Assembly: GCF_004365815.1 (NCBI RefSeq)
Contig: NZ_SODD01000015.1
Span: 21,179 to 44,938 of the forward strand
Direction: 5' to 3'
Length of the DNA: 23,760 bases
DNA from: Breznakia blatticola
Lineage (GTDB): Bacteria; Bacillota_I; Bacilli_A; Erysipelotrichales; Erysipelotrichaceae
Program-made: the position numbers and the translations under genes
In this document: positions 1-20,545 of the stretch, piece after piece
Position numbering within the stretch: the stretch's first letter is position 1
Layout of the letters: each line of letters begins with the position of its first letter
Notes under the pieces: generated by a model
Seen by the model: the letters and a program-made list of their open reading frames with translations, nothing else
The model's database searches: none
Told to the model about the DNA's origin: nothing

Positions 1-414
1 TGCTTTAGCATCATCTACTTCTTGTTGTGTTGCATTTGTATCTGCTACTACTGTTTTAGCATCTGCTAGTGCATCTTTAAGAACAGCCCATGAATCTGCA
101 GTATAATCTGTTTCAGTTAATGCTTCTGCATTTGTAATTACAGTTGTAAGTCCAGTCTTATCAACAACTGCAACTGCTACTAAATCATCAATTGCACTTT
201 CTAGTGCTGCTTTAGCATCATCTACTTCTTGTTGTGTTGCATTTGTATCTGCTACTACTGTTTTAGCATCTGCTAGTGCATCTTTAAGAACAGCCCATGA
301 ATCAGTAGTGTAGTCTGTTTCAGTTAATGCTTCTGCATTTGTAATTACAGTTGTAAGTCCACTCTTATCAACAACAACTGGTGAATCTGCTAAATCAATG
401 CAAGGCACAACAAC
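1..414. repeat. Tandem 207-bp (69-codon) in-frame repeat inside the GH101 gene, encoding FIVAR-type modules. Copy 1 starts at the window edge.
   Basis: Positions 1-96 are identical to 208-303. About 168 nt per copy align with 5 mismatches before the copies diverge. The encoded unit is VVDK(S/T)GLTTVITNAEALTETDYT(T/A)DSWAVLKDALADAKTVVADTNATQQEVDDAKA. A third, diverged FIVAR-like module lies at about 1745-1930. Confidence 0.85.
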
Positions 415-3400
415 ATATCCATCTTCTATAGATTTCACTGTGAAATCTTCACGAACATTAGTTCCAGCATTATCTACAACAACATATGCATTTCCAAATG
501 CTACATTTTTAAATTTGTAATTTCCGTTTGCATCTGTGCTCGTTGTAAATGTTTTTAAACTCTTTGTACCTAATGCACTTACGATCATTTTTGACCCAAG
601 TAATGGTGATTGTGCATAAAGTGTAACTGTTTTACCAACAACAGGTGTATCGTTATTCACAACTTTTCCAGCTACTACTTCATTATCACCTACTGGTGGA
701 TCATATGAAGTTACAACAACGTTGTCCACTTTCACCGTATTTGCAACACGTGTGTTCATACCAACACGTCCTACTTCTTGTTGAACGCTTGCCATTGTTT
801 GGTCAAATACAAGTGTTCCGTCTACCCAAAGTTTCATTTGTGTATCAACGATTTCAACTTTAAGGTGTAATGTTTTTCCTGCAGTAAATGAAGGTCCAGT
901 GTACATAGATGACCACTTGTTACCATTTTTACCCCAGTATTCTGCAAACCATTGGTTCGAAGTATCTCCAGTACCGATATATACACGGTTATTCATATCA
1001 TTTGCACGAAGTAAGATACCTAAACGTTTTCCGTCACCTTCTGATGTTACATCCATTTCCACCACACCATTTTTAAATGTAGGTGCAGCTGTATCATATA
1101 CATTTGCATGTCCTGAAGGGAATTTTATTTTCGTTTGTCCAGCTTCATGTTGAATTGTTGTACTTGAGTTGTTACCTGCAAGGTTATCCCAAGTCGTTCC
1201 ATCCGTAAATGAGTTTACATAATCAGCAACTGATTCTGGTTCAATCATGTAGTGTTTAGTTAATGGTTCACCTTTTGTTACTTGAAGTTCACCATTAAAT
1301 ACATCATATCCAGATTCTGGTGATTGAATTTTAATTTTGTATGAACCAGTTGTTAAACCAGCAAATTCAAATGTTCCATCCAATCCAGTTGTTGTCGAAC
1401 TAGACACTCCTGCTTCGTTTTCAATACGTACAGTTGCATTAGGCACAATATCACCAACCGCTGTTGCTTTTGCTTGTAATGAGTTAGTTAAGCGTGTAAG
1501 TGTTATATTTTTTGTTACATCTACTTGTGCATTTGAAGTAGTTACTTTATCAACAACTGTTTCAAAGTATTTATGGTTCACTTGAATATCATGTGTTCCG
1601 AATGCAACACCATGAATTTCATAATATCCTTTGCTATTTGTTTTTGCTTTGACTTTTGTTCCCGCAACATCAATAACAACTTCGATATCCGCTTGTCCTT
1701 TACTACCTTCACTTACAGTTCCACTTACTGTATTTGCAACGATTTCAAGATTTGCAATTGCATCTTTCAGGTTTTTAACACCTTGATCTACTTGTGCTTG
1801 TGTTGCACTTGCTTTGTCAAGTAATGCTCTACCTTCTTCCATTGCATCCGTGAAATCTGCCCAAGACTCTGCACTGTAGTTTACTTCAATTAAGTCTTTA
1901 TTTGCATCAATTAATGCTTGTAATTCACTTCCATCAGAAACAACTTTTTCAATTACAACATTATCAATCATAATGTCTTTGTATCCTCTAAAGTCAGCGT
2001 TTCCTCCAGAATCACCTTGTAATTCAGGTGTAACATTTGTTGAGTAAATACCAAACCAAGTTTGTCCAGTTTCTGAACCTGTAATTCTTGCTTGGAATTT
2101 TTGTGCTTTATCTTTTGAGTGCGTTTCTGTTAATGGTGTTAAGTTTGAAGCTGATTTGAATTCTCCATCTCCAACCATCACTGCATATGTACCTGTTGAT
2201 CCTACTTCATAATCGAAACTTACCATGTATGTTTCATTTGGTTCGAATCTAAAGTTTTGTGGAATTGTTTGGTATACAAGTTTTGAACGAGTTACCAATC
2301 CATTTGTTTTTAATGACCAATCTCCTTCGATTACATCATCAATGATTTTTCCATTCCATCCACGTTGTGTGTATGGTTCGTGTTTTTCAGAAAGGTGTGT
2401 ACGGTTATCTTGTACTCCTTCAATACCTCCAACTACAAATGGGTAGATTCCTTGTGGGACATTTTCAAAGTCTTGAACAAACTTACCATCTTTCATTGTT
2501 TCTGATTCATTTTCAAATACACGAATATCATCAAAGTATGTAAATCCTTCTTTTGCTTCACGTGATAATGTCAATGTTACATCACTTCCATCACTTGGTG
2601 CTGTAAAGAATACATACATGTTTTGGAAATAACTTGAGCCATCTACAGTTGAACTATTTGTATTGTGTGATGCAGCTTTTATATAGTTTTTCGCAATTGA
2701 TCTTGTTGTGTAGTTTGAAATAGTTTCTCCATTTGCTTCTACAGAAATAAATGCTTTTGCATCACTTCTGTTATCTACACCTACATACACTGCATATTTT
2801 TGACCTGGTGTTAAACCAGTAATTTTTTGACTAAGTTTTACTTCATCCGTTGTATTATTCAATGTTAGCATACGGTTACTTGCTTGTGATTTTGTTACTG
2901 TTGCTGCCGCTGTTTCTCCAGTAATATCCCAAGCATCTAAGTTACCTGAGTTAAATCCAGTGTCAACGATATGTGAATATTCAGACCACTGCACATTTTC
3001 ATTTGTACGAGTGTCTTTGTATACTACATATCCTTTTCCTTTTTCTGCAGAAATTGTAATTTTTCCATCTGTAATTGCTACTGTTTTAGGATTGATTTTT
3101 CCATCTTCACTAAGTTCGTAAACAATTGCATTCGTATTCCATCCTGCAGGCACTGCCCATGTACTTGTTCCACCATCTTTATTGTAGTGGTAAAGTTTTT
3201 CATCAGCTGATGCAAGTTGGTTTCCGTTTTGGTCCCAGTTCCATGGAATTAAATATTTTTCACCATCCATGATAACTTTGTCATTTAATGTCATTGTACG
3301 TAAACGGTATCCTGCAGAAGCAAAATCATTTGATTGACGTTCAATAACCAAAGTGTCATTACCTTCTTTTAATGTCACCTTCATTTCAGGTGTCCATTGG

Positions 3401-6084
3401 TATGTTTCTCCATTATCAGTCATTGATACTGGTGTTCCATTTTCCCATTTAATAACTTTAAAGTGTTGTACGTATTTTGAAGCAATATTGTCTTCAAATA
3501 AGTTTTCCATATATGCTTCGTAGTCATTACGTCCTTGCCAACCTTCAAAGTCTTTCATATCGTATCCACCTAAAAGTGGATTAATAGCTGCTCCACCATA
3601 TGATGGGTAATCACCTACCCAAGAATCTTTTTGGTGGTTTTGAATAAATCGAGCAATTGAACTGTTTACACCCTTGTTTGAGTATCCTCCATAAGTAAGG
3701 TCTGCTGCCCAGTGTTGGAATGTTGAATCATAATTAAATGCATGTCCCCATTCACCAGCAACACGCCAACCTAGGTTATTGATTTCTTTTGCAAGTTGAC
3801 TACTTGCCCAAGTTCCATTATCACCAGATTGTCCATTACCCCAAACATCCACATAAATGAAATCTAAATCATTGCTAGCACCACCTAATGCATCATAGAA
3901 ATCTTTAAAGCGCTCTGCTCTTCCATGTGTTAAGTCGTATGCTGCATCAATATTAATTCCTTGATCTAACCAGTTCCATCCGTATTTATAGTTTCCATTT
4001 CCATCTTTCAATAAACGATCTTCATTGAAGTATTTTGATTCTGGATATGTTTCACTTGCATTAACGTGTACTCCGAATGTTGCACCATATTTTTTACCTT
4101 CTTTTAATAAAGTAATCATATCTTTTGCACCACCAATACGTGTACCGATATCTGCATAGTTTAAGTGTCCAGAGTCATGTCCTTCACTTCCATAACCTTT
4201 AAGTAAGATTGTTTGTCCCAATCCATCCGTGTGTAAGTATACTTTTTTTACATTATCCAATGTCATCAAGAATGGGTTTTGTGCCATACTACCAAAGTTC
4301 ATTGCAATACGCATCGCTACTAAATCAGGAACTGTTTCATAACCAAGCGGGTTATTCATAATATCTCTATATGCAATTGCCCCATCTTGCCAATCAACAA
4401 CCGCATCATCATTTTCATCACCTGTTATAACTACTTTTGCGCATGGCAATTCAGCTTCTGTATTTTGTTTACGATTTTCAGCACCTTTTTGGTATGTCCA
4501 ACGTGTGCTACTTAATCCTACATTTTTATATGTTTCATATTGTGTAGATGTAGCACTTACACGTTGCCAATCTGCTGATACTTTATTTTCTGAGTTTGAC
4601 CATAATCCAGCACTTAATGAACTATTTGAAACGAATCCAAATGTGTATCCAGTAACTGCTTTTGGCATTTGATCAACTGTGTAAAAACGGTCTCCAGTTT
4701 TATGTGTGTTTGTCGACATTTGAGATCCTGCAAAATTCGCACTTGATTGTGTATTACGTACACTCACTAAACTATGATTAGGTATCTCAATAGTTTTCAC
4801 AATTTTATTATCTACTACATTTGTAATATTAAAACTTAATGTATTTTTATCTACTGATAATACTGCTGTTAATACACAATCTATATCATTATCCACATCT
4901 TTCGCTGTTAATGTATACGTTGCTTTTGAACCTTCAGTTTTATCTAAAGTAACAGTTGGTGTAACTTCAACATCATTAATTTTAATCACTGATAATTCTT
5001 CTGTTTGTCCATAGAATTTACGTCCAGCAAGATCACCTTTCATTTCATAGTAGATAACTCGTGGGAATTCTGTATCAATTCCAACTTTCATATCACTACT
5101 TTCAATGTGTTTTGGTGCAGTTACTTCAATTTCTTCTTCTGCAAGTAATTTGATTTCACCTAAATTAATATCTTCAGTCTTTGCTTCAACTTTTGCTGCA
5201 TAGCTTTGATATCCAGGCTTTGAAATAACTAAATTGTAATCCCCACTTGTGATGTTTTGGAAAACGAATTGTCCTTGTGCATTCGTATTTGTTGAAACTG
5301 ATCCTAGTTTCACAAGTGCATTATCTAAAGGAGCATTGTTTGAGTCTTTTACAACCCCATTAATATTCACTTCTGTAATGACCGGTTCTTGATACTGTGC
5401 TTCAAATACTTCTCCACCATGATTAGTAGATAGTTTCCAAGTATCTGTATTGTTACTTATTGTATTTGTTGCATTTTTATATGTGACATTTTTAAACAAT
5501 ACATCAGTAACTGCGTCTTTATAAGATCCAGCTTTTAAATACACTTTATCTGCTTGTATTGATTGAAGAGCATTAATTGCATATGGATTCCCACTATTTG
5601 TTGGCGTTCCATTAATGTCCACCCACATTTTATTGTCTTCCCATTTTACTTTTAATGTTGTTTCTTCCCCTTGATTAGGTCCAGCAACACCTAGTTTTGG
5701 ATATGATCCAGAACCATTTACTTTATATTCGTAAAACCAGTTACTTGATGCATCCATTCCCACGAAAACAAAATTATTCTTGTCTACGTAGCGTAAATAC
5801 ACTCCAAACCTTGTGTCTGTTTTTGTCGAACGTGGGGTAAATGTAAATGATAACTCCCCATTATCTGGTGTACCCACCTCACTATTCGTCAATTCAAGTA
5901 GTGCGACTTTTGCGCCATTGTCATTTCCACTACCAGATGCAAATCTTCTGACTACTTCTTCCGTTTCGTCAGCTTGCACTTCTGGTTTTTGCAACGTATT
6001 TAAAGAAATACTTGGAAAAACTGATGTAATAAACATCATAAATGTAACCAAAAGCGCAAAACTTTGCCGTTTCATTCGTTTCAT
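1..6084 (-). CDS. Secreted multidomain GH101 endo-alpha-N-acetylgalactosaminidase (O-glycanase). The 5' end is complete; the 3' end runs off the left window edge (>=2028 codons).
   Basis: Not in the ORF track because there is no stop in the window. My own minus-strand translation from ATG 6084 (SD GGAGGG at 6090-6095, 5-nt spacer) stays open in one frame down to position 1; 6084 = 3 x 2028. The N-terminus MKRMKRQSFALLVTFMMFITSVFPSISLNTLQ looks like a signal peptide. GH101-type blocks are present: FPRVIYYEMKG, LGQTILLKGYGSEGHDSGHLNYADIG, and NDLDFIYVDVWGNGQSGDNGTW...GWRVAGEWGHAF. These blocks are flanked by LamG/ConA-like modules near both ends, several CarboxypepD_reg-like beta-sandwiches (e.g. 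GVVKDSNNAPLDNALVKLGSVSTNTNAQGQFVFQNITSGDYNLVISKPGY) and FIVAR modules. Confidence 0.9.
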   Translation of the reverse strand, partial: MKRMKRQSFALLVTFMMFITSVFPSISLNTLQKPEVQADETEEVVRRFASGSGNDNGAKVALLELTNSEVGTPDNGELSFTFTPRSTKTDTRFGVYLRYVDKNNFVFVGMDASSNWFYEYKVNGSGSYPKLGVAGPNQGEETTLKVKWEDNKMWVDINGTPTNSGNPYAINALQSIQADKVYLKAGSYKDAVTDVLFKNVTYKNATNTISNNTDTWKLSTNHGGEVFEAQYQEPVITEVNINGVVKDSNNAPLDNALVKLGSVSTNTNAQGQFVFQNITSGDYNLVISKPGYQSYAAKVEAKTEDINLGEIKLLAEEEIEVTAPKHIESSDMKVGIDTEFPRVIYYEMKGDLAGRKFYGQTEELSVIKINDVEVTPTVTLDKTEGSKATYTLTAKDVDNDIDCVLTAVLSVDKNTLSFNITNVVDNKIVKTIEIPNHSLVSVRNTQSSANFAGSQMSTNTHKTGDRFYTVDQMPKAVTGYTFGFVSNSSLSAGLWSNSENKVSADWQRVSATSTQYETYKNVGLSSTRWTYQKGAENRKQNTEAELPCAKVVITGDENDDAVVDWQDGAIAYRDIMNNPLGYETVPDLVAMRIAMNFGSMAQNPFLMTLDNVKKVYLHTDGLGQTILLKGYGSEGHDSGHLNYADIGTRIGGAKDMITLLKEGKKYGATFGVHVNASETYPESKYFNEDRLLKDGNGNYKYGWNWLDQGINIDAAYDLTHGRAERFKDFYDALGGASNDLDFIYVDVWGNGQSGDNGTWASSQLAKEINNLGWRVAGEWGHAFNYDSTFQHWAADLTYGGYSNKGVNSSIARFIQNHQKDSWVGDYPSYGGAAINPLLGGYDMKDFEGWQGRNDYEAYMENLFEDNIASKYVQHFKVIKWENGTPVSMTDNGETYQWTPEMKVTLKEGNDTLVIERQSNDFASAGYRLRTMTLNDKVIMDGEKYLIPWNWDQNGNQLASADEKLYHYNKDGGTSTWAVPAGWNTNAIVYELSEDGKINPKTVAITDGKITISAEKGKGYVVYKDTRTNENVQWSEYSHIVDTGFNSGNLDAWDITGETAAATVTKSQASNRMLTLNNTTDEVKLSQKITGLTPGQKYAVYVGVDNRSDAKAFISVEANGETISNYTTRSIAKNYIKAASHNTNSSTVDGSSYFQNMYVFFTAPSDGSDVTLTLSREAKEGFTYFDDIRVFENESETMKDGKFVQDFENVPQGIYPFVVGGIEGVQDNRTHLSEKHEPYTQRGWNGKIIDDVIEGDWSLKTNGLVTRSKLVYQTIPQNFRFEPNETYMVSFDYEVGSTGTYAVMVGDGEFKSASNLTPLTETHSKDKAQKFQARITGSETGQTWFGIYSTNVTPELQGDSGGNADFRGYKDIMIDNVVIEKVVSDGSELQALIDANKDLIEVNYSAESWADFTDAMEEGRALLDKASATQAQVDQGVKNLKDAIANLEIVANTVSGTVSEGSKGQADIEVVIDVAGTKVKAKTNSKGYYEIHGVAFGTHDIQVNHKYFETVVDKVTTSNAQVDVTKNITLTRLTNSLQAKATAVGDIVPNATVRIENEAGVSSSTTTGLDGTFEFAGLTTGSYKIKIQSPESGYDVFNGELQVTKGEPLTKHYMIEPESVADYVNSFTDGTTWDNLAGNNSSTTIQHEAGQTKIKFPSGHANVYDTAAPTFKNGVVEMDVTSEGDGKRLGILLRANDMNNRVYIGTGDTSNQWFAEYWGKNGNKWSSMYTGPSFTAGKTLHLKVEIVDTQMKLWVDGTLVFDQTMASVQQEVGRVGMNTRVANTVKVDNVVVTSYDPPVGDNEVVAGKVVNNDTPVVGKTVTLYAQSPLLGSKMIVSALGTKSLKTFTTSTDANGNYKFKNVAFGNAYVVVDNAGTNVREDFTVKSIEDGYVVVPCIDLADSPVVVDKSGLTTVITNAEALTETDYTTDSWAVLKDALADAKTVVADTNATQQEVDDAKAALESAIDDLVAVAVVDKTGLTTVITNAEALTETDYTADSWAVLKDALADAKTVVADTNATQQEVDDAKA
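3385..4330 (-). other. Approximate catalytic (beta/alpha)8 region of the GH101 enzyme
   Basis: This region spans LVAMRIAMNFGSMAQNPF... to ...GGYDMKDFEGWQGR. The candidate nucleophile is Asp in YVDVW (codon 746, nt 3847-3849). The candidate acid/base is Glu in AGEWGH, 32 residues later. Boundaries are judged by eye only. Confidence 0.6.
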
Positions 6085-6415: not shown

Positions 6416-7267
6416 ATGAGCAATCATAGGTATTCATTTGAAAAAAGTAAAATCGAAAAAATGAATTTAAAGCTTCGTTATATCACGCATGCAGAAAGTG
6501 ATGTTGACTGGCATAGTATAAAACATACACATCATTTTACCGAGGTCTTTTTTATCGTAAATGGTGACGGTGGATTTCTTGTAGAAAATGAACGATTTCC
6601 AGTTAAAGAAGGGGATTTAATTATTATCAACCCAAATGTTGCCCACACCGAAGAAGGACATGATAAAGGTGGATTTGAATATATCGTTTTTGGTATTGAA
6701 GGTATGCAATTTATGAGCAATGAGACAAGTTTGGCTAAAGATTATGTCATTTCTAACTTCGAGAATAATAAAGTGATTATCTTGCATTATCTTAATACAT
6801 TACTTCAAGAAATTAAGCAAAAAGACGATAATTACGAAATGATCATTCAAAACATTTTGGAAATCTTAATGGTTCAAATTGTACGAAAAACCAATAATGC
6901 GATTTCCTATGTCGCTACAAAACGTATTTCCAAGGAAATAAAAGTAATTGAAGAATATATCAACAATCATTATGCAGAAGAAATTACACTTGATACATTA
7001 AGTAAACTTACATATTTAAATAAATACTATATCATTCATGAGTTTAAAGAATACAAAGGGGTTTCGCCAATTAGTTTTTTAATCGCAAAACGCATTGAAG
7101 AAGCAAAAATACTACTTGCGACTACCGATTATACAATCGCAAGAATTGGTGAATTGACCGGTTTTTCTAGTCAATCATACTTCTCACAAATCTTTAAAAA
7201 AGAAACCAATACATCACCAAATCAATATCGTCGTGCTGCATTAAAAAACGAAATTGATTTTGGTTAA
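6416..7267 (+). CDS. AraC-family transcriptional regulator (cupin-like sensor domain plus C-terminal HTH)
   Basis: 283-aa ORF with SD GGAGGAG. The N-terminus HHFTEVFFIVNGDG...GDLIIINPNVAHTE is cupin-like. The C-terminus LSKLTYLNKYYIIHEFKEYKGVSPISFL...IARIGELTGFSSQSYFSQIFKKETNTSPNQYRR is a typical AraC double HTH. It is divergent from the GH101 gene. Confidence 0.9.
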   Translation: MSNHRYSFEKSKIEKMNLKLRYITHAESDVDWHSIKHTHHFTEVFFIVNGDGGFLVENERFPVKEGDLIIINPNVAHTEEGHDKGGFEYIVFGIEGMQFMSNETSLAKDYVISNFENNKVIILHYLNTLLQEIKQKDDNYEMIIQNILEILMVQIVRKTNNAISYVATKRISKEIKVIEEYINNHYAEEITLDTLSKLTYLNKYYIIHEFKEYKGVSPISFLIAKRIEEAKILLATTDYTIARIGELTGFSSQSYFSQIFKKETNTSPNQYRRAALKNEIDFG

Positions 7268-7300
7268 AAAAAGGACACTTTCAATTGAAGTGTCTTTTTT
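7266..7300. terminator. Bidirectional rho-independent terminator between the AraC gene and asrC
   Basis: A-run, GACACTT (7274-7280), 7-nt loop, AAGTGTC (7288-7294), then T6. It reads as hairpin plus U-run on both strands. Confidence 0.7.
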
Positions 7301-10369: not shown

Positions 10370-11257
10370 ATGTTAGACTATAAAATCAAAACATTTTTAA
10401 CTGTTTGCGAGTATTTAAACTATACAAATGCAGCAAAAGCCTTAAATTTAACACAACCTGCAATCACCCAACAAATTAAAGCATTGGAAGAATACTATGA
10501 TGTAAAACTCTTCAGTTATCATAATCGCAACTTAGCTTTAACTACACAAGGTGAAGTTCTTCGCACGGCAATGACAACCATGCTTTTTGATGTGGAAAAG
10601 CTACAAGAAAAACTACTACAAACTAAAAATCATACAAGTGAATTGAACTTTGGTTCCACACATTCTATTGGTGAAATCTATTTGCCTAATGCAATCATTC
10701 CCTATTTAGATAAACATAAGGGAACGATCATGAATTATAATGTGGACAACACCACAGAAATCCTTAATCAATTAAAACAAGGAACAATTGATTTTGCCTT
10801 TGTTGAAGGAACTTTCGAGAAGAAAGAATTTAGCTATATTCCAATTTCTAATCAACGTTTTATTGCTGTATGTAATAGTGAGCGCGAAATTCCAACAATT
10901 GATAATATCAACGAACTGTTTCACCATCCCATCATTTTACGTGAAACTGGATCTGGTGGACGGAATATCGTTGAAGAATTTCTCAAAGACAATGGATATC
11001 GCATTGAAGATTTCTCAACATTCTCAACCTTTAATTCGGTACGAACAATTCGTAAACTATTACAAGCAGATTTAGGAATTGCCTTTGTTTATGAAATTGT
11101 CGTAGAAGAGGATATTAAAAACGGAATATTAAAAGAAATTGAAATCCCTGGATTTCATATTGAGCATGAATTCAGTTTTGTATGGCGTAAAGACTCTCTA
11201 TACAAAGATGAATATCTTGCCTTCTTACACGAAATCCAACCAGAACTATCAAAATAA
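10370..11257 (+). CDS. LysR-family transcriptional regulator, divergent from asrABC
   Basis: 295 aa. N-terminal HTH is YTNAAKALNLTQPAITQQIKALEEYYDVKLF, followed by a LysR substrate-binding-type C-terminal domain. This is the classic divergent LysR/target-operon arrangement. Confidence 0.9.
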   Translation: MLDYKIKTFLTVCEYLNYTNAAKALNLTQPAITQQIKALEEYYDVKLFSYHNRNLALTTQGEVLRTAMTTMLFDVEKLQEKLLQTKNHTSELNFGSTHSIGEIYLPNAIIPYLDKHKGTIMNYNVDNTTEILNQLKQGTIDFAFVEGTFEKKEFSYIPISNQRFIAVCNSEREIPTIDNINELFHHPIILRETGSGGRNIVEEFLKDNGYRIEDFSTFSTFNSVRTIRKLLQADLGIAFVYEIVVEEDIKNGILKEIEIPGFHIEHEFSFVWRKDSLYKDEYLAFLHEIQPELSK

Positions 11258-15603: not shown

Positions 15604-15951
15604 TTATTCTTGAATTTGTATTGTTACTCCATTTGGATCTAACACATGGAAGAAATGAACATTTGGAGCTGGTGAAATTACATCACTTGTTACTAAACCT
15701 TTATGTTCTAAGTCTTTCTTTGTTGCTTCCATATCCTTTACTTGTAAGACAAAGCCAACAGTATTTCCTTTTTCAAGTAGCTTATCTGTTTTGATTAATT
15801 CTAAACATATACCTGTTTCATCTTTTAGAAATACTAAATGCATTCCTTCATTTTTTACTTCTTGTGCAACTTCAAGTCCAATATGATCAACATAAAATTG
15901 AAAAGATGTTTCCATTTCATTTACTAAAATTGTATTCCAAGCAATCTTCAT
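15604..15951 (-). CDS. VOC (glyoxalase / bleomycin-resistance / dioxygenase) family protein
   Basis: 115 aa from ATG 15951 (SD GGAGGA, 7-nt spacer). It has a betaalphabetabetabeta-type sequence pattern (MKIAWNTILVNEMETSFQFYVDHIGLEV...FFHVLDPNGVTIQIQE). Confidence 0.75.
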   Translation of the reverse strand: MKIAWNTILVNEMETSFQFYVDHIGLEVAQEVKNEGMHLVFLKDETGICLELIKTDKLLEKGNTVGFVLQVKDMEATKKDLEHKGLVTSDVISPAPNVHFFHVLDPNGVTIQIQE

Positions 15952-16028
15952 ATACGTATCCTCCTTCATATCTTTGACTTATTGTAACATATCAAAAAAT
16001 TTTTACGACTTGAATACCCTACAGTATT

Positions 16029-16058
16029 TAAAAATGGCACCCCTTATGGAGTGCCATC
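16029..16058 (-). terminator. Terminator of the ABC-transporter operon
   Basis: On the minus strand: ATGGCAC, 10-nt loop, GTGCCAT, then TTTTT. It begins 4 nt after the ATPase stop codon. Confidence 0.65.
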
Positions 16059-16061
16059 ATA

Positions 16062-16862
16062 TTAGTCTTTTACAAGAAGAACTGCATCATCATTCAATTC
16101 TTCACCAGTTGCGATTTCGAATTTTTCTAATAGATCTTTTACCGTAAGATTTTTCTTTTCTTCCCCTTTGATATCAAAGATAATTTTTCCATCATTCATC
16201 ATAATTAAGCGATTTCCATATGTAATTGCATCTTTCATATTATGCGTAACCATAAATGCTGTTAAATTTTCTTCCTTGATAATTTCATCCGTCAATGTAA
16301 GAACTTTTTTCGCAGTCTTTGGATCAAGTGCTGCTGTATGTTCATCCAACAATAAGATTTTTGGTTTTTGTAGAGTTGCCATTAATAGAGTTAATGCTTG
16401 ACGTTGCCCTCCAGAAAGTAAACCGACTTTTGCATCTAAACGATTTTCTAAACCTAAATCAAAGCGTTCCAAACGCTGTTTTAATACTTCTTTTTCATTT
16501 GGTGTAATTCCCCAACGAAGTCCGCGTTTTTTTCCACGACGATTTGCCATTGCTAAGTTTTCTGCAATTCCCATATCTGCAGCCGTTCCCATCATTGGAT
16601 CTTGGAACACGCGTCCAATTAAACGACTACGTTTGTATTCAGGATATAAGGAAATGTTCTCTCCAGCTAGTTCAATCGTACCACAATCAATTGGATACAC
16701 ACCGGCAATCAGGTTTAATACAGTTGATTTACCTGCTCCATTACCACCAATTACTGTTACGAAATCTCCTTCTTCTAAAGTAAGATCAATTTGATCAATG
16801 GCTTTTTTCTCATTTACGGTACCTAAATTGAAGGTCTTTGACACTTTTGAAATTTTAAGCAT
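16062..16862 (-). CDS. ABC transporter ATP-binding protein
   Basis: Walker A GGNGAGKST, signature LSGGQRQ, Walker B ILLLDEHT. I place the start at ATG 16862 (SD GGAGG, 9-nt spacer) rather than the track's TTG at 16871. It overlaps the permease stop by 8 nt (ATGCTTAA). Confidence 0.9.
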   Translation of the reverse strand: MLKISKVSKTFNLGTVNEKKAIDQIDLTLEEGDFVTVIGGNGAGKSTVLNLIAGVYPIDCGTIELAGENISLYPEYKRSRLIGRVFQDPMMGTAADMGIAENLAMANRRGKKRGLRWGITPNEKEVLKQRLERFDLGLENRLDAKVGLLSGGQRQALTLLMATLQKPKILLLDEHTAALDPKTAKKVLTLTDEIIKEENLTAFMVTHNMKDAITYGNRLIMMNDGKIIFDIKGEEKKNLTVKDLLEKFEIATGEELNDDAVLLVKD

Positions 16863-17784
16863 TTTTGTCAACCTCCTTCCCTGTTAGTTTTTTATATAAA
16901 TTGACTTGTTTACGTTTTGCCATCATGACTGGTAAAGCTAAAGACACCCCAACCAAAATAGCTGATAACAATTTCAAATCATCTGTTTGCATTCCCATGC
17001 GTAGAACAATTGCAATAATCACACGATATACAATTGAACCAATTACGATTGAAGATAAACGAAGTTTAAATCCACGCTTATTTCCAAATAGTACTTCTCC
17101 AATAACGATTGAAGCTAGACCAATAACAATTGCTCCTACACCCATTTTCACATCCGCGTATCCTTGCGATTGGGTAACTAGTGCACCAGAAAATGCCACA
17201 AGTCCATTAGCAATCATAATAGCAATAATCTTTGTTGTTTTGGTATTTACACTTAGTGCACTTGCCATTCTTTCATTATTTCCAGTTGCACGAATTGCTG
17301 AACCAATTTCCGTTCCAAAAAACCAGTAGAGCACTACGATCACAAGTACGACAATTAATGCACCTACAATTAAGCTTGCTTGTGCAGCACTAAGCCCAGT
17401 TAATTCACTAACACTTTTAAATACCGTATCACTTTGCATTAATGGTAAATTGCTTCGTCCCATAATTCTAAGGTTAATTGAGTATAATCCAATTTGTGTA
17501 AGGATCCCTGCAAGAATTGCTGGGATTTCAAATTTCGTAATTAATAATCCGGTAATAAATCCACAAACACAACCTGCAACCATAGCAAGTAATACAGCTA
17601 ATACTGGATTCATTCCACCTACAATACATACTGCACAAACTGCACCACCAGTAGCAAATGAACCGTCTACTGTCATATCTGCAATATCAAGAATACGGAA
17701 GGTAATGTAAACTCCAAGGGCCATAATCCCCCAAATAATTCCTTGTGCAACCGCACCTTGTAACGATAATAATAATCCCGTCAT
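16855..17784 (-). CDS. ABC transporter permease (BPD_transp_2-type, about 309 aa, polytopic)
   Basis: A hydrophobic multi-TM protein with SD AGGAGAAAG. It lies 9 nt downstream of the binding-protein gene and is translationally coupled to the ATPase gene. Confidence 0.88.
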   Translation of the reverse strand: MTGLLLSLQGAVAQGIIWGIMALGVYITFRILDIADMTVDGSFATGGAVCAVCIVGGMNPVLAVLLAMVAGCVCGFITGLLITKFEIPAILAGILTQIGLYSINLRIMGRSNLPLMQSDTVFKSVSELTGLSAAQASLIVGALIVVLVIVVLYWFFGTEIGSAIRATGNNERMASALSVNTKTTKIIAIMIANGLVAFSGALVTQSQGYADVKMGVGAIVIGLASIVIGEVLFGNKRGFKLRLSSIVIGSIVYRVIIAIVLRMGMQTDDLKLLSAILVGVSLALPVMMAKRKQVNLYKKLTGKEVDKNA

Positions 17785-17793
17785 ATCTTTCTC

Positions 17794-18768
17794 CTATTTC
17801 ACAATTTTTGCTTCTTTTAATAACTCTTCAGGAATCGTAATTCCTAGTTTTTTTGCTGTACTCTCATTGAATCCCATTTCTAATTTATCTTCAGAAGAGT
17901 ATTCAATTGGCATATCTTTTGGTTCAGCTTCACCACGTAAGATTTTAGCAGCTTGTTTTCCTGCTAAATATCCAATGTCGTAGTAGTTAATTCCGTATGT
18001 AGCAAGCGCTCCTTTTTCAACCATTGCAATTTCTCCAACAATTGTTGGCATATTATGTTCATTTGTTACACTGACAACATTTGCAATACTTTCACTTACC
18101 ATGTTATCTGTTGGGACATAGATTGCATCTACTTTTCCAACTAAGCTTTCTGCAACTTGTTGTACTTGATTTGATTCAGATACGGTTGCTGCTTCTACTT
18201 TAATTCCTTTTGCTTCAAGTGCTTTTTTAGCAATTTCGTATTGCAGTTCACTATTACGTTCTGCATTTGTATACATGACAGCTACACTTTTTACTTCAGG
18301 AGCAAGTTTTACTAGCAAATCAATTTGATCTTCAACTGGTGTTAAATCACTAACTCCTGTTACATTTCCACCTGGTTTCTCATTTGATTTTACAAGTTTT
18401 GAATCTTCTGGATTTGTAACTGCAGAAATAACAATTGGAATTTCTGTTGTTTTTTGTGCAGCGGCAATCGCACTTGGTGTTGCAATTGCATAAATTAAAT
18501 CATTCCCATCATTAACTAGTTTATCTGCAATTGTTTCTGCATTGCTTCCTTCACCTTGCGCATTTTGATCATCAAATGTAATGTTTTTCCCCTCTTCAAA
18601 TCCTTCATCTTTTAATGCATCGATAAAACCATCGTGTGCTTGATCTAAAGCAGGGTGTTGTGCATATTGGATAATTCCAACTTTTTTCATCCCTTCTGTA
18701 TCATCATCACAAGCAACTAAACCTATAACCATTAATAAACTCATGCAAATCATCATTAACTTTTTCAT
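17794..18768 (-). CDS. ABC transporter substrate-binding lipoprotein B (PF04392/COG2984-type). Predicted Tyr-responsive.
   Basis: 324 aa. The signal peptide has lipobox LVAC (MKKLMMICMSLLMVIGLVAC|DDD). It is a paralogue of the 19074-20054 product, sharing blocks such as GIIQYAQHPALD, LIYAIATPSA, GGNVTGVSDLTPV and LAGKQAAKILRGEA. It is preceded by a T-box leader with specifier UAC. Confidence 0.9.
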   Translation of the reverse strand: MKKLMMICMSLLMVIGLVACDDDTEGMKKVGIIQYAQHPALDQAHDGFIDALKDEGFEEGKNITFDDQNAQGEGSNAETIADKLVNDGNDLIYAIATPSAIAAAQKTTEIPIVISAVTNPEDSKLVKSNEKPGGNVTGVSDLTPVEDQIDLLVKLAPEVKSVAVMYTNAERNSELQYEIAKKALEAKGIKVEAATVSESNQVQQVAESLVGKVDAIYVPTDNMVSESIANVVSVTNEHNMPTIVGEIAMVEKGALATYGINYYDIGYLAGKQAAKILRGEAEPKDMPIEYSSEDKLEMGFNESTAKKLGITIPEELLKEAKIVK

Positions 18769-18797: not shown

Positions 18798-19037
18798 AAA
18801 AAAAACGCCCTCGAATGAGGACGATTTAGAAACCGCGGTACCACCTCTGTTTTATACAATATGTATAACAACTCAAAACACGGTAATGGGTGTTAACCAG
18901 AGGTAGCCTACTGATATATAAACGTTCGGTACTCGACTCCATGATGTATTCATTCACCTTCTTATGTGCTATTTTCACCACCATAGCATCTCTTGTTTCC
19001 AAAGGATCATTACTTGTTCATTTCTACGTCTGTTATG
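18798..19037 (-). promoter_or_regulatory. T-box leader 1 (tRNA-sensing transcription attenuator), predicted specifier UAC = Tyr
   Basis: Minus-strand elements: AG bulge plus distal loop AGAGAUGCUAUGGUGGUGAAAAUAGCAC (18966-18993). Specifier loop UGAA-UAC-A (codon at 18946-18948). Stem III UUAUACAUAUUGUAUAA. T-box/antiterminator GAGG-UGGUACC-GCG...CGU-CCUC (T-box at 18831-18848). Terminator CGUCCUC-AUUC-GAGGGCG plus U8 (18798-18823). Confidence 0.85.
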
Positions 19038-19043
19038 CATTCA

Positions 19044-19072
19044 ATTGTAGTTTGTTCATTCGTTAAAGTCAA
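19044..19072 (-). promoter_or_regulatory. Sigma-A promoter P1 driving T-box leader 1
   Basis: On the minus strand: TTGACT (19067-19072), 17 nt, TACAAT (19044-19049). The -35 element starts 1 nt after the stop codon of the upstream binding-protein gene. Confidence 0.6.
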
Positions 19073-19073
19073 C

Positions 19074-20054
19074 TTATTCTAAAACTGTCGCTTTATCAAG
19101 TAAACTTTCAGGAATTGTGATATTCACTAAATCTGCAACCTTTTTATTGATTACAAGCTCTAATTCATCACCAGTTAAGTATTCAATTGGCATATCTGCA
19201 GCAACAGCTTCACCACGTAGGATTTTTGCTGCTTGTTTTCCTGCAAGTTGCCCTAACTTGTAATAGTCAATTGCATATGATGCAAGACCACCACCTTCTG
19301 TCATTCCTTTTTCACCAACAATACAAGGAATTCCTTTTTCGTTGGTTACTTGTGTTACTGTTGCAATTCCTTCAGCTAGTAAGTTATCTGTTGGAATATA
19401 CACTGCATCAACTTGACCAACTAAACTCTCTGCAACTTGTTGAATTTGACTAATATCAGAAACTGTTGTTTCTTGATATTCAATTCCTTCTTTTTTAAGT
19501 GCTTCTGCTGCAATATCTGCTTGGAATTTTGAATTATCTTCAGAATTCGTATACATAATTGCAACTTTTTTTACATCTGGCATAAATTCCTTAATCAAAG
19601 AAATTTGTTCCTTCACTGGCGTTAAATCACTAACCCCAGTAACATTTCCCCCTGGCTCTTCATTACAAGCAACAATTCCTGATGTTTTAGGATCAGTTAC
19701 TGCATTTACCACGATAGGAATATCTTGTGTTTTTTGTGCAACTGCTTGTGCACTTGGTGTTGCAATCGCATAGATTAAATCTGGATTGTCATTTACAAGT
19801 TTGTCTGCAATTGTCTCATTTGTAGAACTATCACTTTGCGCATTATTGCGATTAATTGTTAAGTTCTTTCCCTCTTCAAATCCTTCTTCTTTTAAGGCAT
19901 CAATAAATCCTTCATATGTTTTATCCAATGCTGGATGTTCTGCATATTGAATGACTCCGATAGTTGCATGTCCTTCTGCTTTTTCTTCTTCATTACACGC
20001 TACAAGCGTTAGACACATACAAACTAGTAATGATACGACTCCAAGTTTTTTCAT
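19074..20054 (-). CDS. ABC transporter substrate-binding lipoprotein A (PF04392/COG2984-type). Predicted Phe-responsive.
   Basis: 326 aa. The signal peptide has lipobox LVAC (MKKLGVVSLLVCMCLTLVAC|NEEE). It is a paralogue of the 17794-18768 product and is preceded by a T-box leader with specifier UUC. Confidence 0.9.
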   Translation of the reverse strand: MKKLGVVSLLVCMCLTLVACNEEEKAEGHATIGVIQYAEHPALDKTYEGFIDALKEEGFEEGKNLTINRNNAQSDSSTNETIADKLVNDNPDLIYAIATPSAQAVAQKTQDIPIVVNAVTDPKTSGIVACNEEPGGNVTGVSDLTPVKEQISLIKEFMPDVKKVAIMYTNSEDNSKFQADIAAEALKKEGIEYQETTVSDISQIQQVAESLVGQVDAVYIPTDNLLAEGIATVTQVTNEKGIPCIVGEKGMTEGGGLASYAIDYYKLGQLAGKQAAKILRGEAVAADMPIEYLTGDELELVINKKVADLVNITIPESLLDKATVLE

Positions 20055-20082
20055 AACTATTTCCCCCTATGACTCAATAAAC

Positions 20083-20306
20083 AAAAAAAGTCCTCATTAT
20101 GAGGACGATGAATCACCGCGTTACCACCTCGTTTGCCATCAAAACTGATGACCTCTTTGGTACACAAGATAATGGTTGTTAACCAGCTTGCCTTTTGTGA
20201 CAAGCAACTCCGTGATGAATTCAAAACTTTTCTCAGTGCTATTTTCACCAGCCATAGCATCTCTAATTTCCAAAAAGGATTTACTACTTCACTTCTTTGT
20301 TTAATT
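20083..20306 (-). promoter_or_regulatory. T-box leader 2, predicted specifier UUC = Phe
   Basis: Minus-strand elements: AGAGAUGCUAUGGCUGGUGAAAAUAGCAC (20236-20264). Specifier loop UGAA-UUC-A (codon at 20217-20219). Stem III CAUCAGUUUUGAUG. T-box/antiterminator GAGG-UGGUAAC-GCG...CGU-CCUC (T-box at 20114-20133). Terminator GUCCUCA-UAA-UGAGGAC plus U7 (20083-20106). Confidence 0.85.
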
Positions 20307-20312
20307 ATTACC

Positions 20313-20341
20313 ATTTTACCGATTATGTAAATATATGTCAA
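20313..20341 (-). promoter_or_regulatory. Sigma-A promoter P2 driving T-box leader 2
   Basis: On the minus strand: TTGACA (20336-20341), 17 nt, TAAAAT (20313-20318). Confidence 0.65.
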
Positions 20342-20422
20342 TCAAAAAAGAAACTTTTTACATTAAATGAAAGAATTTTCAATTCTGATTGCCAGTTCTT
20401 GAATGTAATTCTTACTTCAGCT

Positions 20423-20545
20423 TCATGTTTGTGACTCATTATGTATTCTTTGTTCCTGCTTTTCTAATAATCTTCGTATTTTGAGTAATTCATTATATAT
20501 ACCACCAAAATAACAAAACGCAATAATTGCTAAAATAATAATCAT
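20423..20545 (-). CDS. Possible 40-aa single-pass membrane peptide (below the ORF-track size cutoff)
   Basis: SD AAAGGAG lies 8 nt upstream of ATG 20545. The product is MIIILAIIAFCYFGGIYNELLKIRRLLEKQEQRIHNESQT: one hydrophobic helix followed by a charged tail. An AT-rich hairpin AGAATT-GAA-AATTCT follows. I have no homology evidence. Confidence 0.35.
   Translation of the reverse strand: MIIILAIIAFCYFGGIYNELLKIRRLLEKQEQRIHNESQT

Follow-up and report, generated by a model that had tools for sequence, protein, structure and literature searches.

Gut Breznakia carries, on the minus strand of the window (the whole stretch of DNA analysed, 23,760 nucleotides long), one amino-acid import operon in which two binding-protein genes each stand behind a separate T-box leader. 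With moderate confidence, the operon is read here as encoding a single ABC importer of the TrpXYZ/CD0873 family placed under two separate transcription-attenuation switches. To judge from sequence, it probably imports the aromatic amino acids tyrosine and phenylalanine. The specifier of the first leader is UUC and that of the second is UAC, and the only permease and ATPase genes lie behind the second.

Layout of the operon

All features of the operon lie on the minus strand. The upstream module begins with promoter P1 (20313..20341; TTGACA-17-TAAAAT, 11 of 12 consensus matches), the end of which lies about 7 nt ahead of the first base of the Rfam match to leader 1 and which is kept in the related loci of Erysipelotrichaceae bacterium MTC7 (L001) and of an Erysipelothrix MAG (L003). 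It is followed by T-box leader 1 (20083..20306; specifier UUC, Phe) and by sbpA (19074..20054), which encodes a lipoprotein substrate-binding protein of 326 aa with an LVAC lipobox and a PF04392 domain (2.8e-81). The internal promoter P2 (19044..19072; TTGACT-17-TACAAT, 10 of 12 consensus matches) begins right at the 3' side of the sbpA stop codon, and its counterpart (TTGACA) precedes leader 2 in L001 and L003. A terminator between the sbpA stop and P2 was sought by reading the sequence and by a scan, and none was found. The second module consists of T-box leader 2 (18798..19035; specifier UAC, Tyr) and sbpB (17794..18768), the product of which is likewise a lipoprotein substrate-binding protein with an LVAC lipobox and a PF04392 domain (324 aa; 1.1e-83).

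Downstream of sbpB, and hence behind the Tyr leader only, are the sole copies of a permease gene (16855..17784; 309 aa; PF02653 BPD_transp_2, 7.9e-29) and of an ABC ATPase gene (16062..16871; PF00005, 2.8e-26). The open reading frame of the ATPase opens with TTG at 16871, and its likely start, as read from the sequence, is the ATG at 16862 with GGAGG before it. Just 3' of the ATPase stop codon sits a probable operon terminator (16030..16055), also read directly from the sequence as GGCAC-loop-GUGCC followed by A and U5; it is absent from the hairpin scan because its loop exceeds 8 nt. With genes for a PF04392 lipoprotein, then a BPD_transp_2 permease and finally an ABC ATPase, the operon has the make-up of a TrpXYZ/CD0873-type importer, and the single permease and ATPase that the earlier note had the two receptors share are borne out by Pfam, which finds one of each.

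The two T-box leaders

T-box RF00230 was the only Rfam family matched in the window by cmscan, with two hits on the minus strand, both of them full length (model 1-219) and neither truncated. Leader 1 matches at 20306-20098 with 123.1 bits (E 3e-27) and leader 2 at 19035-18814 with 106.1 bits (E 8e-23); as both exceed the gathering score of 93, the two T-box elements reported in the earlier note are genuine. Every block on which that note had aligned them, from the AG bulge to the terminator, is found in both leaders. These blocks include the AGAGA bulge, the distal hairpin GCUAU-GG(C)UGGUGAAA-AUAGC, the specifier loop with AGUA on its 5' side and GAA-NNN-A on its 3' side, Stem III, and the T-box sequence GAGGUGGUA(A/C)CGCGG. 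The K-turn of Stem I, the specifier loop, the AG bulge and the distal loop are all present with support from base-pair covariation. The antiterminator bulge reads UGGUAAC in leader 1 (20120-20126; context GAGG-UGGUAAC-GCGGU) and UGGUACC in leader 2 (18837-18843; context GAGG-UGGUACC-GCGGU), so that the UGGU described earlier is indeed present in both (20126-20123 and 18843-18840). The terminator lies at 20106-20090, followed by U7, in leader 1 and at 18823-18806, followed by U8, in leader 2. In both, CCUC of the antiterminator is re-used in the terminator stem, which makes the two folds mutually exclusive. Both tRNA-Phe and tRNA-Tyr have A73; genes for these tRNAs (anticodon, A73) were sought in the window and in the fetched loci of relatives, and none was found there.

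The specifier loop reads GAA-UUC-A in leader 1, with UUC at 20219-20217, and GAA-UAC-A in leader 2, with UAC at 18948-18946. When Stem I was folded by itself for minimum free energy, the canonical fold was not recovered and the result was no better than for shuffles; since such folding is uninformative for a motif-rich RNA, covariation among 16 related leaders was adopted in its place. A covariance model built from 2 sequences (R1) was too narrow and was rebuilt from 13 hits (R2). Across the 16 leaders, standard pairs fill 95.9% of the Stem I cells and compensatory two-sided changes occur at 16 of the 20 Stem I pairs, whereas slid controls are only 31-60% paired and none of 500 shuffles reached the observed values. 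The covariation of Stem I, set against the slid controls, thus establishes that the specifier loop has the 7-nt GAA-NNN-A on its 3' side. The register proposed earlier, with UUC for Phe and UAC for Tyr, holds in the covariance-model alignment as well as in the covarying helices. We give almost no credence to the formal possibility, raised in the earlier note, of a misread register, in which the specifiers would be AUU/AUA or AAU and the leaders would sense isoleucine or asparagine, because the covarying helices leave exactly GAA-NNN-A unpaired with the purine abutting the closing helix, and because the Ile leader of L008, which precedes an ilvE-like gene and reads AUC-A up to the helix, fits the same codon-purine-helix rule. 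UUC and UAC, moreover, both end in C, as T-box specifier codons typically do.

Stem II is canonical in leader 2, with its S-turn, and a plain hairpin in leader 1, where 9 model columns including the S-turn are deleted. This deletion would fit a decaying leader 1 which has lost tRNA sensing along with part of its Stem II, leaving control to the Tyr leader alone. Such decay is nevertheless highly improbable, as leader 1 scores above leader 2 against RF00230 (123 vs 106 bits) and keeps intact all of the motifs that contact the tRNA, namely the K-turn, specifier loop, AG bulge, distal loop and UGGU bulge. L001 shares the deletion, this form of the leader being 92% conserved there, and the leaders of L109 and L118 have a comparable plain Stem II hairpin. 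T-boxes of the glyQS type are likewise functional without Stem II.

Binding proteins and their relatives

Aligned from end to end, SbpA and SbpB show 59% identity, in line with the earlier description of paralogous PF04392 lipoproteins of about 60% identity. Among solved structures, SbpA matches 6HNI (CD0873) with 9e-70, 3LFT with 1.5e-59 and 3LKV with 3.4e-56, the ligands of which are Tyr, Trp and Phe, respectively, and its AlphaFold model (pLDDT 88.8) gives target-normalised TM-scores of 0.93-0.94 to all three. Against the TrpX equivalog NF041285, SbpA scores 332.1 bits and SbpB 334.9, both under the cut-off of 390; by this sequence measure the two proteins are relatives of TrpX and not TrpX itself.

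In CD0873, Glu-263 hydrogen-bonds the hydroxyl of tyrosine and Tyr-279 excludes tryptophan, and among 20 amino acids tyrosine alone gave a thermal shift (PMC6816091). Both residues have equivalents in SbpA (Glu248 and Tyr264), SbpB also retains the pair, and the two proteins therefore have a pocket of the Tyr-selective CD0873 type. The same pair occurs in all 20 Phe- or Tyr-linked relatives, and Glu stands at position 263 in 8 of 8 distinct Phe-linked binding proteins. The Phe-type pocket of VC_1101 (3LKV), the sole Phe-bound structure, has Ala at position 263 and Tyr at 279 and is absent from SbpA and from all Phe-linked proteins, which have Glu. Ala also replaces Glu at this position in the three binding proteins of neighbouring operons with UGG (Trp) leaders, where the pocket does go along with the specifier. 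The earlier proposal of two amino-acid-specific receptors thus finds no counterpart in the pocket, for with Glu and Tyr of CD0873 kept in both binding proteins a Phe-specific receptor is not evident from sequence. SbpB is most likely Tyr-selective, and SbpA, with its Tyr-type pocket, probably takes Phe as well as Tyr and is not a dedicated Phe receptor. No alignment column gave a clean split between Phe-linked and Tyr-linked proteins. Position 241 of CD0873 was considered as a selectivity site (Leu in Phe-linked, V/I/M in Tyr-linked proteins) and was dropped, as the Phe-linked L162 has Met.

The dual layout of Phe leader, SBP-A, Tyr leader, SBP-B, permease and ATPase recurs in two other Erysipelotrichaceae genomes, those of MTC7 and the Erysipelothrix MAG, and across the three genomes SBP-A and SBP-B are orthologous and the Phe-then-Tyr order is kept. 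A further locus, L166, is 99% identical to L003 in nucleotide sequence; it stems from that organism and was not counted as an independent case. The modules are paired as the earlier note had described them, but its term 'duplicated' cannot mean a recent duplication. Leaders 1 and 2 (62% identity from end to end when all 16 leaders are aligned; 78% mean column identity when the two are aligned as a pair) are no more alike than either is to the leaders of other genomes. The Phe and Tyr modules fall in separate, older clades, all 5 members of the sbpB clade have Tyr leaders, and the permease is nearest to those of single Tyr-type operons (L004, 82%; L033, 70%). These separate clades and the grouping of the permease point to an added module and away from a tandem duplication, and the Phe module seems to have been joined on upstream of a complete Tyr-controlled operon.

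A T-box ahead of the binding-protein gene is absent in most relatives, as surveyed with Rfam in 11 loci and with a regular expression for the 3' motif in all 166 loci. Where leaders do occur, the choice between UAC and UUC alternates among close relatives (20 related leaders). For example, at the syntenic loci L162 and L163, whose binding proteins share 80% identity, the leader is of the Phe and the Tyr type, respectively. The specifier therefore does not track the clade of the binding protein, a correlation for which the earlier note had recommended looking. Single operons of binding protein, permease and ATPase stand behind UUC leaders in L020, L086-090, L109, L118, L119, L121 and L162, which implies that control of whole transporters by tRNA-Phe has recurred in this clade.

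These observations bear on what the Phe specifier means for transport. A strict division of labour, with SbpA specific for Phe and SbpB for Tyr, each answering to its own uncharged tRNA and both feeding a shared translocator, is possible but doubtful. It would account for the UUC and UAC specifiers and for the conserved order of orthologous receptors in three genomes. It could also draw on CD0873 position 94, a putative pocket site (Asn79 of SbpA, within the opening turn of the helix that follows strand 2), which is polar (N/C/S) in 8 of 8 Phe-linked proteins and A/P/T in 11 of 12 Tyr-linked ones. However, Cys at this position is shared by the T-box-less proteins L008a, L014a and L016a, SbpA retains the Tyr-selective pair, and the 80% identity of the L162 and L163 proteins behind different specifiers argues against so tight a match of leader to ligand. 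The opposite reading, in which both receptors bind Tyr and the Phe specifier serves regulation only, with no transport specificity to match it (for example because import of Tyr spares a shared precursor, or as tolerated one-base drift), is improbable. The Glu and Tyr equivalents in every Phe- and Tyr-linked protein examined, the Tyr specificity of CD0873 with the same pair, and the commonness of specifier flips at the cost of one base all speak for it. Against it, UUC leaders are kept across several divergent lineages, where some control whole operons, and this conservation speaks for selection rather than drift. Nor is it apparent what a cell short of Phe would gain from importing Tyr alone, and the substrate of a transporter usually matches the specifier of its T-box, as Wels et al. 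2008 (PMC2494555) presuppose.

Regulatory logic and known systems

In the preferred reading of one importer for Tyr and Phe under two switches, P1 would drive leader 1, in which UUC would pair with the GAA anticodon of tRNA-Phe and the UGGU bulge with the ACCA end that is free in uncharged tRNA; the antiterminator would thereby be stabilised and sbpA transcribed. P2, right after sbpA, would drive leader 2, in which UAC would read tRNA-Tyr and gate sbpB, the permease and the ATPase. The cognate tRNA of each leader is predicted here from the specifier rule and the classical tyrS UAC-to-UUC experiment. As no terminator lies between sbpA and leader 2, transcripts from P1 should also enter the Tyr switch. 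Limitation for Tyr would induce receptor B together with the translocator. Limitation for Phe alone should raise only receptor A, since the permease and ATPase stand behind the Tyr leader only and P1 transcripts run into that leader; receptor A would then dock on translocator made by basal read-through. When Phe and Tyr are limiting together, both promoters would contribute and expression would be maximal. A translocator that stays uninduced under Phe limitation alone would be odd for a dedicated Phe uptake route. We put forward only tentatively a receptor-level logic of two tRNAs, in which the Phe T-box would add an extra receptor only, the Tyr T-box would control the second receptor and the translocator and gate the read-through, and the specifier would have been repeatedly retargeted between UAC and UUC in front of proteins with a 'tyrosine' pocket. 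If true, either a Glu pocket deemed exclusive for Tyr also serves Phe uptake, or unrecognised residues (e.g., CD0873 position 94) set selectivity, and bacteria adjust, through single-base changes of the specifier, the kind of starvation to which a shared aromatic importer responds.

T-box control of the TrpXYZ/HisXYZ family and one-base UAC-to-UUC retargeting are already textbook knowledge, and the locus shows no new mechanism; its dual leaders are a neat, if modest, variant of a familiar form of control. It offers a natural test bed for how far the specifier predicts the substrate of a transporter, as here the specifier says Phe and the published pocket rule says Tyr, and for how multi-receptor ABC importers split regulation between receptors and translocator. 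For Erysipelotrichales, among them lineages of the human gut, the locus adds Tyr and Phe to the Trp and His covered by T-box-based annotation of PF04392 proteins. Labels such as the KEGG-style 'tryptophan/tyrosine transport' or the bare 'ABC transporter substrate-binding protein' may be refined accordingly. The T-box-controlled ABC transporters tabulated by Wels et al. include those for Trp and His among others and none for Tyr or Phe (PMC2494555). A search of the literature on T-box-controlled Tyr/Phe ABC transporters, or on tyrXYZ, pheXYZ or aroXYZ, found nothing relevant.

Among known systems, TrpXYZ of S. suis and S. pneumoniae (SP1069; PMC9382623; NF041285) resembles the Breznakia locus in combining a PF04392 lipoprotein with a BPD_transp_2 permease and an ABC ATPase, and in placing a transcriptional T-box leader ahead of the gene for the binding protein; SbpA matches its structure 3LFT with a target-normalised TM-score of 0.94. 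It differs in having one receptor and one leader with the specifier UGG, against two receptors and two leaders with UUC and UAC, and in the pocket, which is Ala and Gln in the Trp binder and Glu and Tyr in SbpA and SbpB. HisXYZ belongs to the same transporter family and is controlled by T-box or HisR (PMC9413887; Wels 2008, PMC2494555); the T-box control is a prediction of comparative genomics, made for Erysipelotrichales among other groups. It has one receptor and a specifier for His, unlike the two receptors with Phe and Tyr specifiers found here. The nearest solved homologue is CD0873 of Clostridioides difficile (6HNI/6HNJ/6HNK; PMC6816091), with about 40% identity and a target-normalised TM-score of 0.93, whose selectivity residues both window proteins retain. 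C. difficile also has a second paralogous binding protein, CD0876, which is 70% identical to CD0873, but there each paralogue has separate ABC components (PMC6816091), whereas in Breznakia a single permease and ATPase are shared. Neither T-box control nor a Phe/Tyr split is described for the CD0873 system in the literature searched. A regulatory parallel concerns the same codon pair: in tyrS of B. subtilis, a change of UAC to UUC is sufficient to move induction from Tyr to Phe limitation, according to the account of Grundy et al. 1994 given in PMC7430163, so that one base retargets the leader while the UGGU bulge is unchanged. The tyrS UUC in that account is an engineered state of a synthetase leader, whereas in Breznakia both states are natural and stand side by side in one operon, and they recur among related transporter loci.

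The T-box leaders and their specifier codons

An Rfam scan of the window returned exactly two matches to the T-box family (RF00230; gathering score 93), each spanning the full model on the minus strand: leader 1 at 20306-20098 (123.1 bits, E 3e-27), leader 2 at 19035-18814 (106.1 bits, E 8e-23). Each follows, within a few bases, a near-consensus sigma-70 promoter on the same strand, P1 (TTGACA-17-TAAAAT, 20341-20313) and P2 (TTGACT-17-TACAAT, 19072-19044), and each ends in a G+C-rich hairpin and a U-run (20106-20090 and 18823-18806, minus strand); folding of the 3' domains recovered the same terminator hairpins. The antiterminators read GAGG-UGGUAAC-GCGGU and GAGG-UGGUACC-GCGGU, and hence both bulges start with UGGU. 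An earlier note, made from the sequence alone, had proposed that both leaders are real T-boxes with UGGU bulges; the two matches above 93 bits and the antiterminator sequences bear this out, and every shared sequence block that it described is found in both leaders. A73, the usual discriminator base of both tRNA-Phe and tRNA-Tyr, would be the partner of the U in UGGU. No tRNA genes were found within the window. Stem II of leader 1 (20150-20200) lacks the S-turn (GAA...AGUA) and is cut down to a simple hairpin of 5 bp, as it is in the orthologous leader of Erysipelotrichaceae bacterium MTC7 (locus L001, 5749-5972) and in the Phe leaders of loci L109 and L118; the canonical Stem II is kept in all examined Tyr leaders, L120 possibly excepted.

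The specifier register was read from a Stem I covariance model seeded on the two window leaders and widened with matches from related loci. In the resulting alignment of 16 distinct leaders, each before a homologous binding-protein gene, standard pairs occupy 95.9% of cells and compensatory changes occur in 16 of 20 pairs; no shuffle reached the observed pairing values, and sliding the 3' partners by 1-3 columns left pairing at only 31-60%. The 3' side of the specifier loop holds exactly seven unpaired bases, GAA-NNN-A, between the flanking helices, with the purine adjoining the closing helix, so the specifier codons are UUC (Phe) at 20219-20217 in leader 1 and UAC (Tyr) at 18948-18946 in leader 2, both on the minus strand. 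The codons first proposed thus held their register, and the alternatives AUU/AUA and AAU are ruled out by helix covariation. An unrelated Ile leader (Faecalicoccus locus L008, 8724-10071; also locus L009, 3765) agrees: its loop, GAAU-AUC-A, places AUC-A before the helix by the same rule, and shows that what fixes the codon is the purine together with the closing helix, not direct adjacency to GAA. The gene downstream of this Ile T-box in L008 is branched-chain aminotransferase-like by eye. As PMC7430163 summarises the work of Grundy et al., altering the specifier of B. subtilis tyrS from UAC to UUC suffices to move induction from Tyr to Phe limitation, and the one-base difference between the window leaders is therefore mechanistically sufficient.

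One importer behind two switches

Leader 1 precedes sbpA (19074-20054; 326 aa) and leader 2 precedes sbpB (17794-18768; 324 aa), both encoding PF04392 proteins with an LVAC lipobox, and these are followed by a single permease gene (BPD_transp_2, 16855-17784), a single ABC ATPase gene (16062-16871) and, by direct sequence reading, a hairpin with a U-run at about 16030-16055, all on the minus strand. SbpA and SbpB are 59% identical, which matches the paralogues of about 60% identity sharing one permease and one ATPase that had been described. A protein identical to SbpA is annotated in an unclassified Breznakia (Erysipelotrichaceae). Against the NCBIfam TrpX equivalog both score 332-335 bits (cut-off 390); judged by sequence, they are relatives of TrpX, not TrpX. 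Among solved structures, the nearest are CD0873 of C. difficile (6HNI, E 9e-70; crystallised with Tyr), SP1069 of S. pneumoniae (3LFT; with Trp) and VC_1101 of V. cholerae (3LKV; with Phe), the ligands being those given in PMC6816091; the AlphaFold model of SbpA (pLDDT 88.8) gives target-normalised TM-scores of 0.93-0.94 against them.

That this one importer carries two T-box modules of functional appearance, one for Phe and one for Tyr, is solid. The anatomy of the operon points to asymmetric control, the permease and ATPase lying behind the Tyr leader only. Under Tyr limitation, sbpB would open together with the permease and ATPase genes; with Phe alone limiting, sbpA would be the only gene to open. 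No terminator was found between the stop codon of sbpA and P2, which starts right behind it, so transcripts that pass leader 1 would enter leader 2.

Just upstream of P1 lies a small hydrophobic ORF (MIIILAIIAFCYFGG...; 20419-20545, minus strand) with a good RBS, followed by an A/T-rich spacer before leader 1. A glyoxalase/VOC-family gene, with no evident functional tie to the importer, follows the operon in the window (15604-15969) and in MTC7 (10511-10867). The minus strand of 1-6000 is a single T-, D- and A-rich ORF of at least 2000 aa, open at both ends and running past the window's left edge, by appearance a large surface or repeat protein.

Distribution of the leaders and origin of the dual locus

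The relatives comprise 166 loci encoding related binding proteins, six of them found by exact look-up. A T-box lies directly upstream of the matched gene in only 23 of the 166. Rfam applied to 11 further loci and a motif scan of all loci served as a cross-check of this count. L003 and L166 (99% nucleotide identity) were counted once. The distinct leaders, both window leaders included, number 20, and every bulge begins UGGU. Eight carry UUC (window leader 1, L001a, L003a, L020, L086, L109, L118, L162) and 12 carry UAC (window leader 2, L001b, L003b, L002, L004, L033, L081, L082, L120, L163, L164, L165), a and b denoting the first and second binding protein of a locus. The exact dual layout (P1, Phe leader, SBP-A, P2, Tyr leader, SBP-B, permease, ATPase) recurs in two further genomes, MTC7 (L001) and an Erysipelothrix MAG (L003); the remaining T-box loci have one leader, Phe or Tyr, before a complete three-gene operon. 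At L161 (3233-3500), a TTGACA promoter and a terminator-like hairpin lie upstream of a close SbpA-like gene belonging to the L002/L165 clade; even a permissive Rfam scan detected no T-box there, and the leader may have been lost or replaced.

The suggested covariation of specifier with binding-protein clade holds on one side: the SBP-B clade (window SbpB, L001b, L004, L033, L003b) is uniformly Tyr (5/5), whereas the clade containing SbpA mixes Phe and Tyr leaders. For example, Tyr leaders precede the genes for SbpA-like proteins in B. pachnodae (L002) and Breznakia PF5-3 (L165). Likewise, L120 (Tyr) clusters with L109 and L118 (both Phe), and L162 (Phe) and L163 (Tyr), from one common sample, have binding proteins 80% identical and resemble each other in their flanking gene families (SIS_2 and 5'-nucleotidase upstream, a PRD/PTS-EIIA regulator downstream). 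The Phe (5746-5978) and Tyr (7046-7275) leaders of L003 cluster together and carry a private GGUGGUACCACG (ACCACG) variant of the T-box sequence, which suggests copying or homogenisation (gene conversion) of a leader within the genome of that lineage, with the two then differing chiefly at the specifier. In the 2008 survey of Vitreschak et al., T-boxes reportedly duplicate, move and change specificity.

The window leaders are 62% identical, no closer to each other than either is to foreign leaders. The 'duplicated module' of the earlier note therefore stands as two modules with paralogous lipoproteins, not as a recent tandem duplication. The window permease falls among the permeases of single Tyr-type operons (L004, 82%; L033, 70%). 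In our reading, a complete Tyr-controlled operon gained a Phe-controlled receptor module on its upstream side.

Receptor pockets and known systems

The melting temperature of CD0873 is shifted by Tyr alone among 20 amino acids, a specificity assigned to two residues: Glu-263, which hydrogen-bonds the phenol hydroxyl and is replaced by Ala where Phe or Trp is the bound ligand, and Tyr-279, which keeps out Trp and is Gln in the Trp binder (PMC6816091). Glu and Tyr occupy these positions in all Phe- and Tyr-linked proteins of the set, including SbpB and SbpA (Glu248, Tyr264). In neighbouring operons with UGG (Trp) leaders, three binding proteins (L014b, L030b, L008b) have Ala at position 263, so elsewhere in the family the pocket rule does follow the specifier. 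Applied to the window, the rule makes SbpA and SbpB both look like tyrosine binders.

The earlier note had proposed one importer with two amino-acid-specific receptors, SbpA for Phe and SbpB for Tyr. The two T-box modules on one importer agree with it; the Tyr-type pocket kept by both receptors argues against a simple Phe-specific SbpA, and a strict division of one receptor per amino acid is a possible but less likely reading. No alignment column perfectly separates Phe- from Tyr-linked proteins. The best, CD0873 position 94 (SbpA Asn79), is polar (N/C/S) in 8/8 Phe-linked and A/P/T in 11/12 Tyr-linked proteins; Cys also occurs there in T-box-less relatives, and the AlphaFold model of SbpA places this candidate in the opening turn of the helix that follows strand 2. 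Position 241, another selectivity candidate, failed when L162 joined the alignment. Most economically, the Glu-type clade would import Tyr and probably Phe, leaders would have switched between the two by single-base changes, and the second receptor module would give the importer a second starvation input in three lineages. The original observation is confirmed and its interpretation partly supported.

In Absicoccus (L014, 8720-11571; L030, 8720-11559), two complete SBP-permease-ATPase sets lie in series: a Glu-type operon without a T-box and, directly behind it, a set headed by a UGG (Trp) T-box. The second set, whose SBP has Ala at position 263, therefore looks TrpXYZ-like. Faecalicoccus (L008, 10071-12960) has the same two-set arrangement, with an extra Ile T-box and gene between. 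For L005, L007, L011, L012 and L085 (Faecalicoccus, Faecalitalea and relatives), the observation is limited to the corresponding T-box 3' motif AGGTGGTACCGCA, located 3-4.6 kb beyond the first SBP gene in the downstream direction.

The link that the earlier note drew between this transporter family and Trp and His T-boxes is correct, control being shown experimentally for TrpXYZ of S. suis (PMC9382623) and predicted for HisXYZ (PMC9413887; Wels 2008, PMC2494555). The Wels table contains no T-box-controlled Tyr or Phe ABC transporter, and literature searches, of incomplete coverage such that an earlier listing is possible, found no description of a Phe/Tyr T-box pair. The architecture of the locus is neat and offers a useful test of specifier-based annotation, with no new mechanism. 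As in TrpXYZ, a transporter of the same family is placed under T-box control, but the specifiers in the window are Phe and Tyr and its binding proteins score below the TrpX cut-off.
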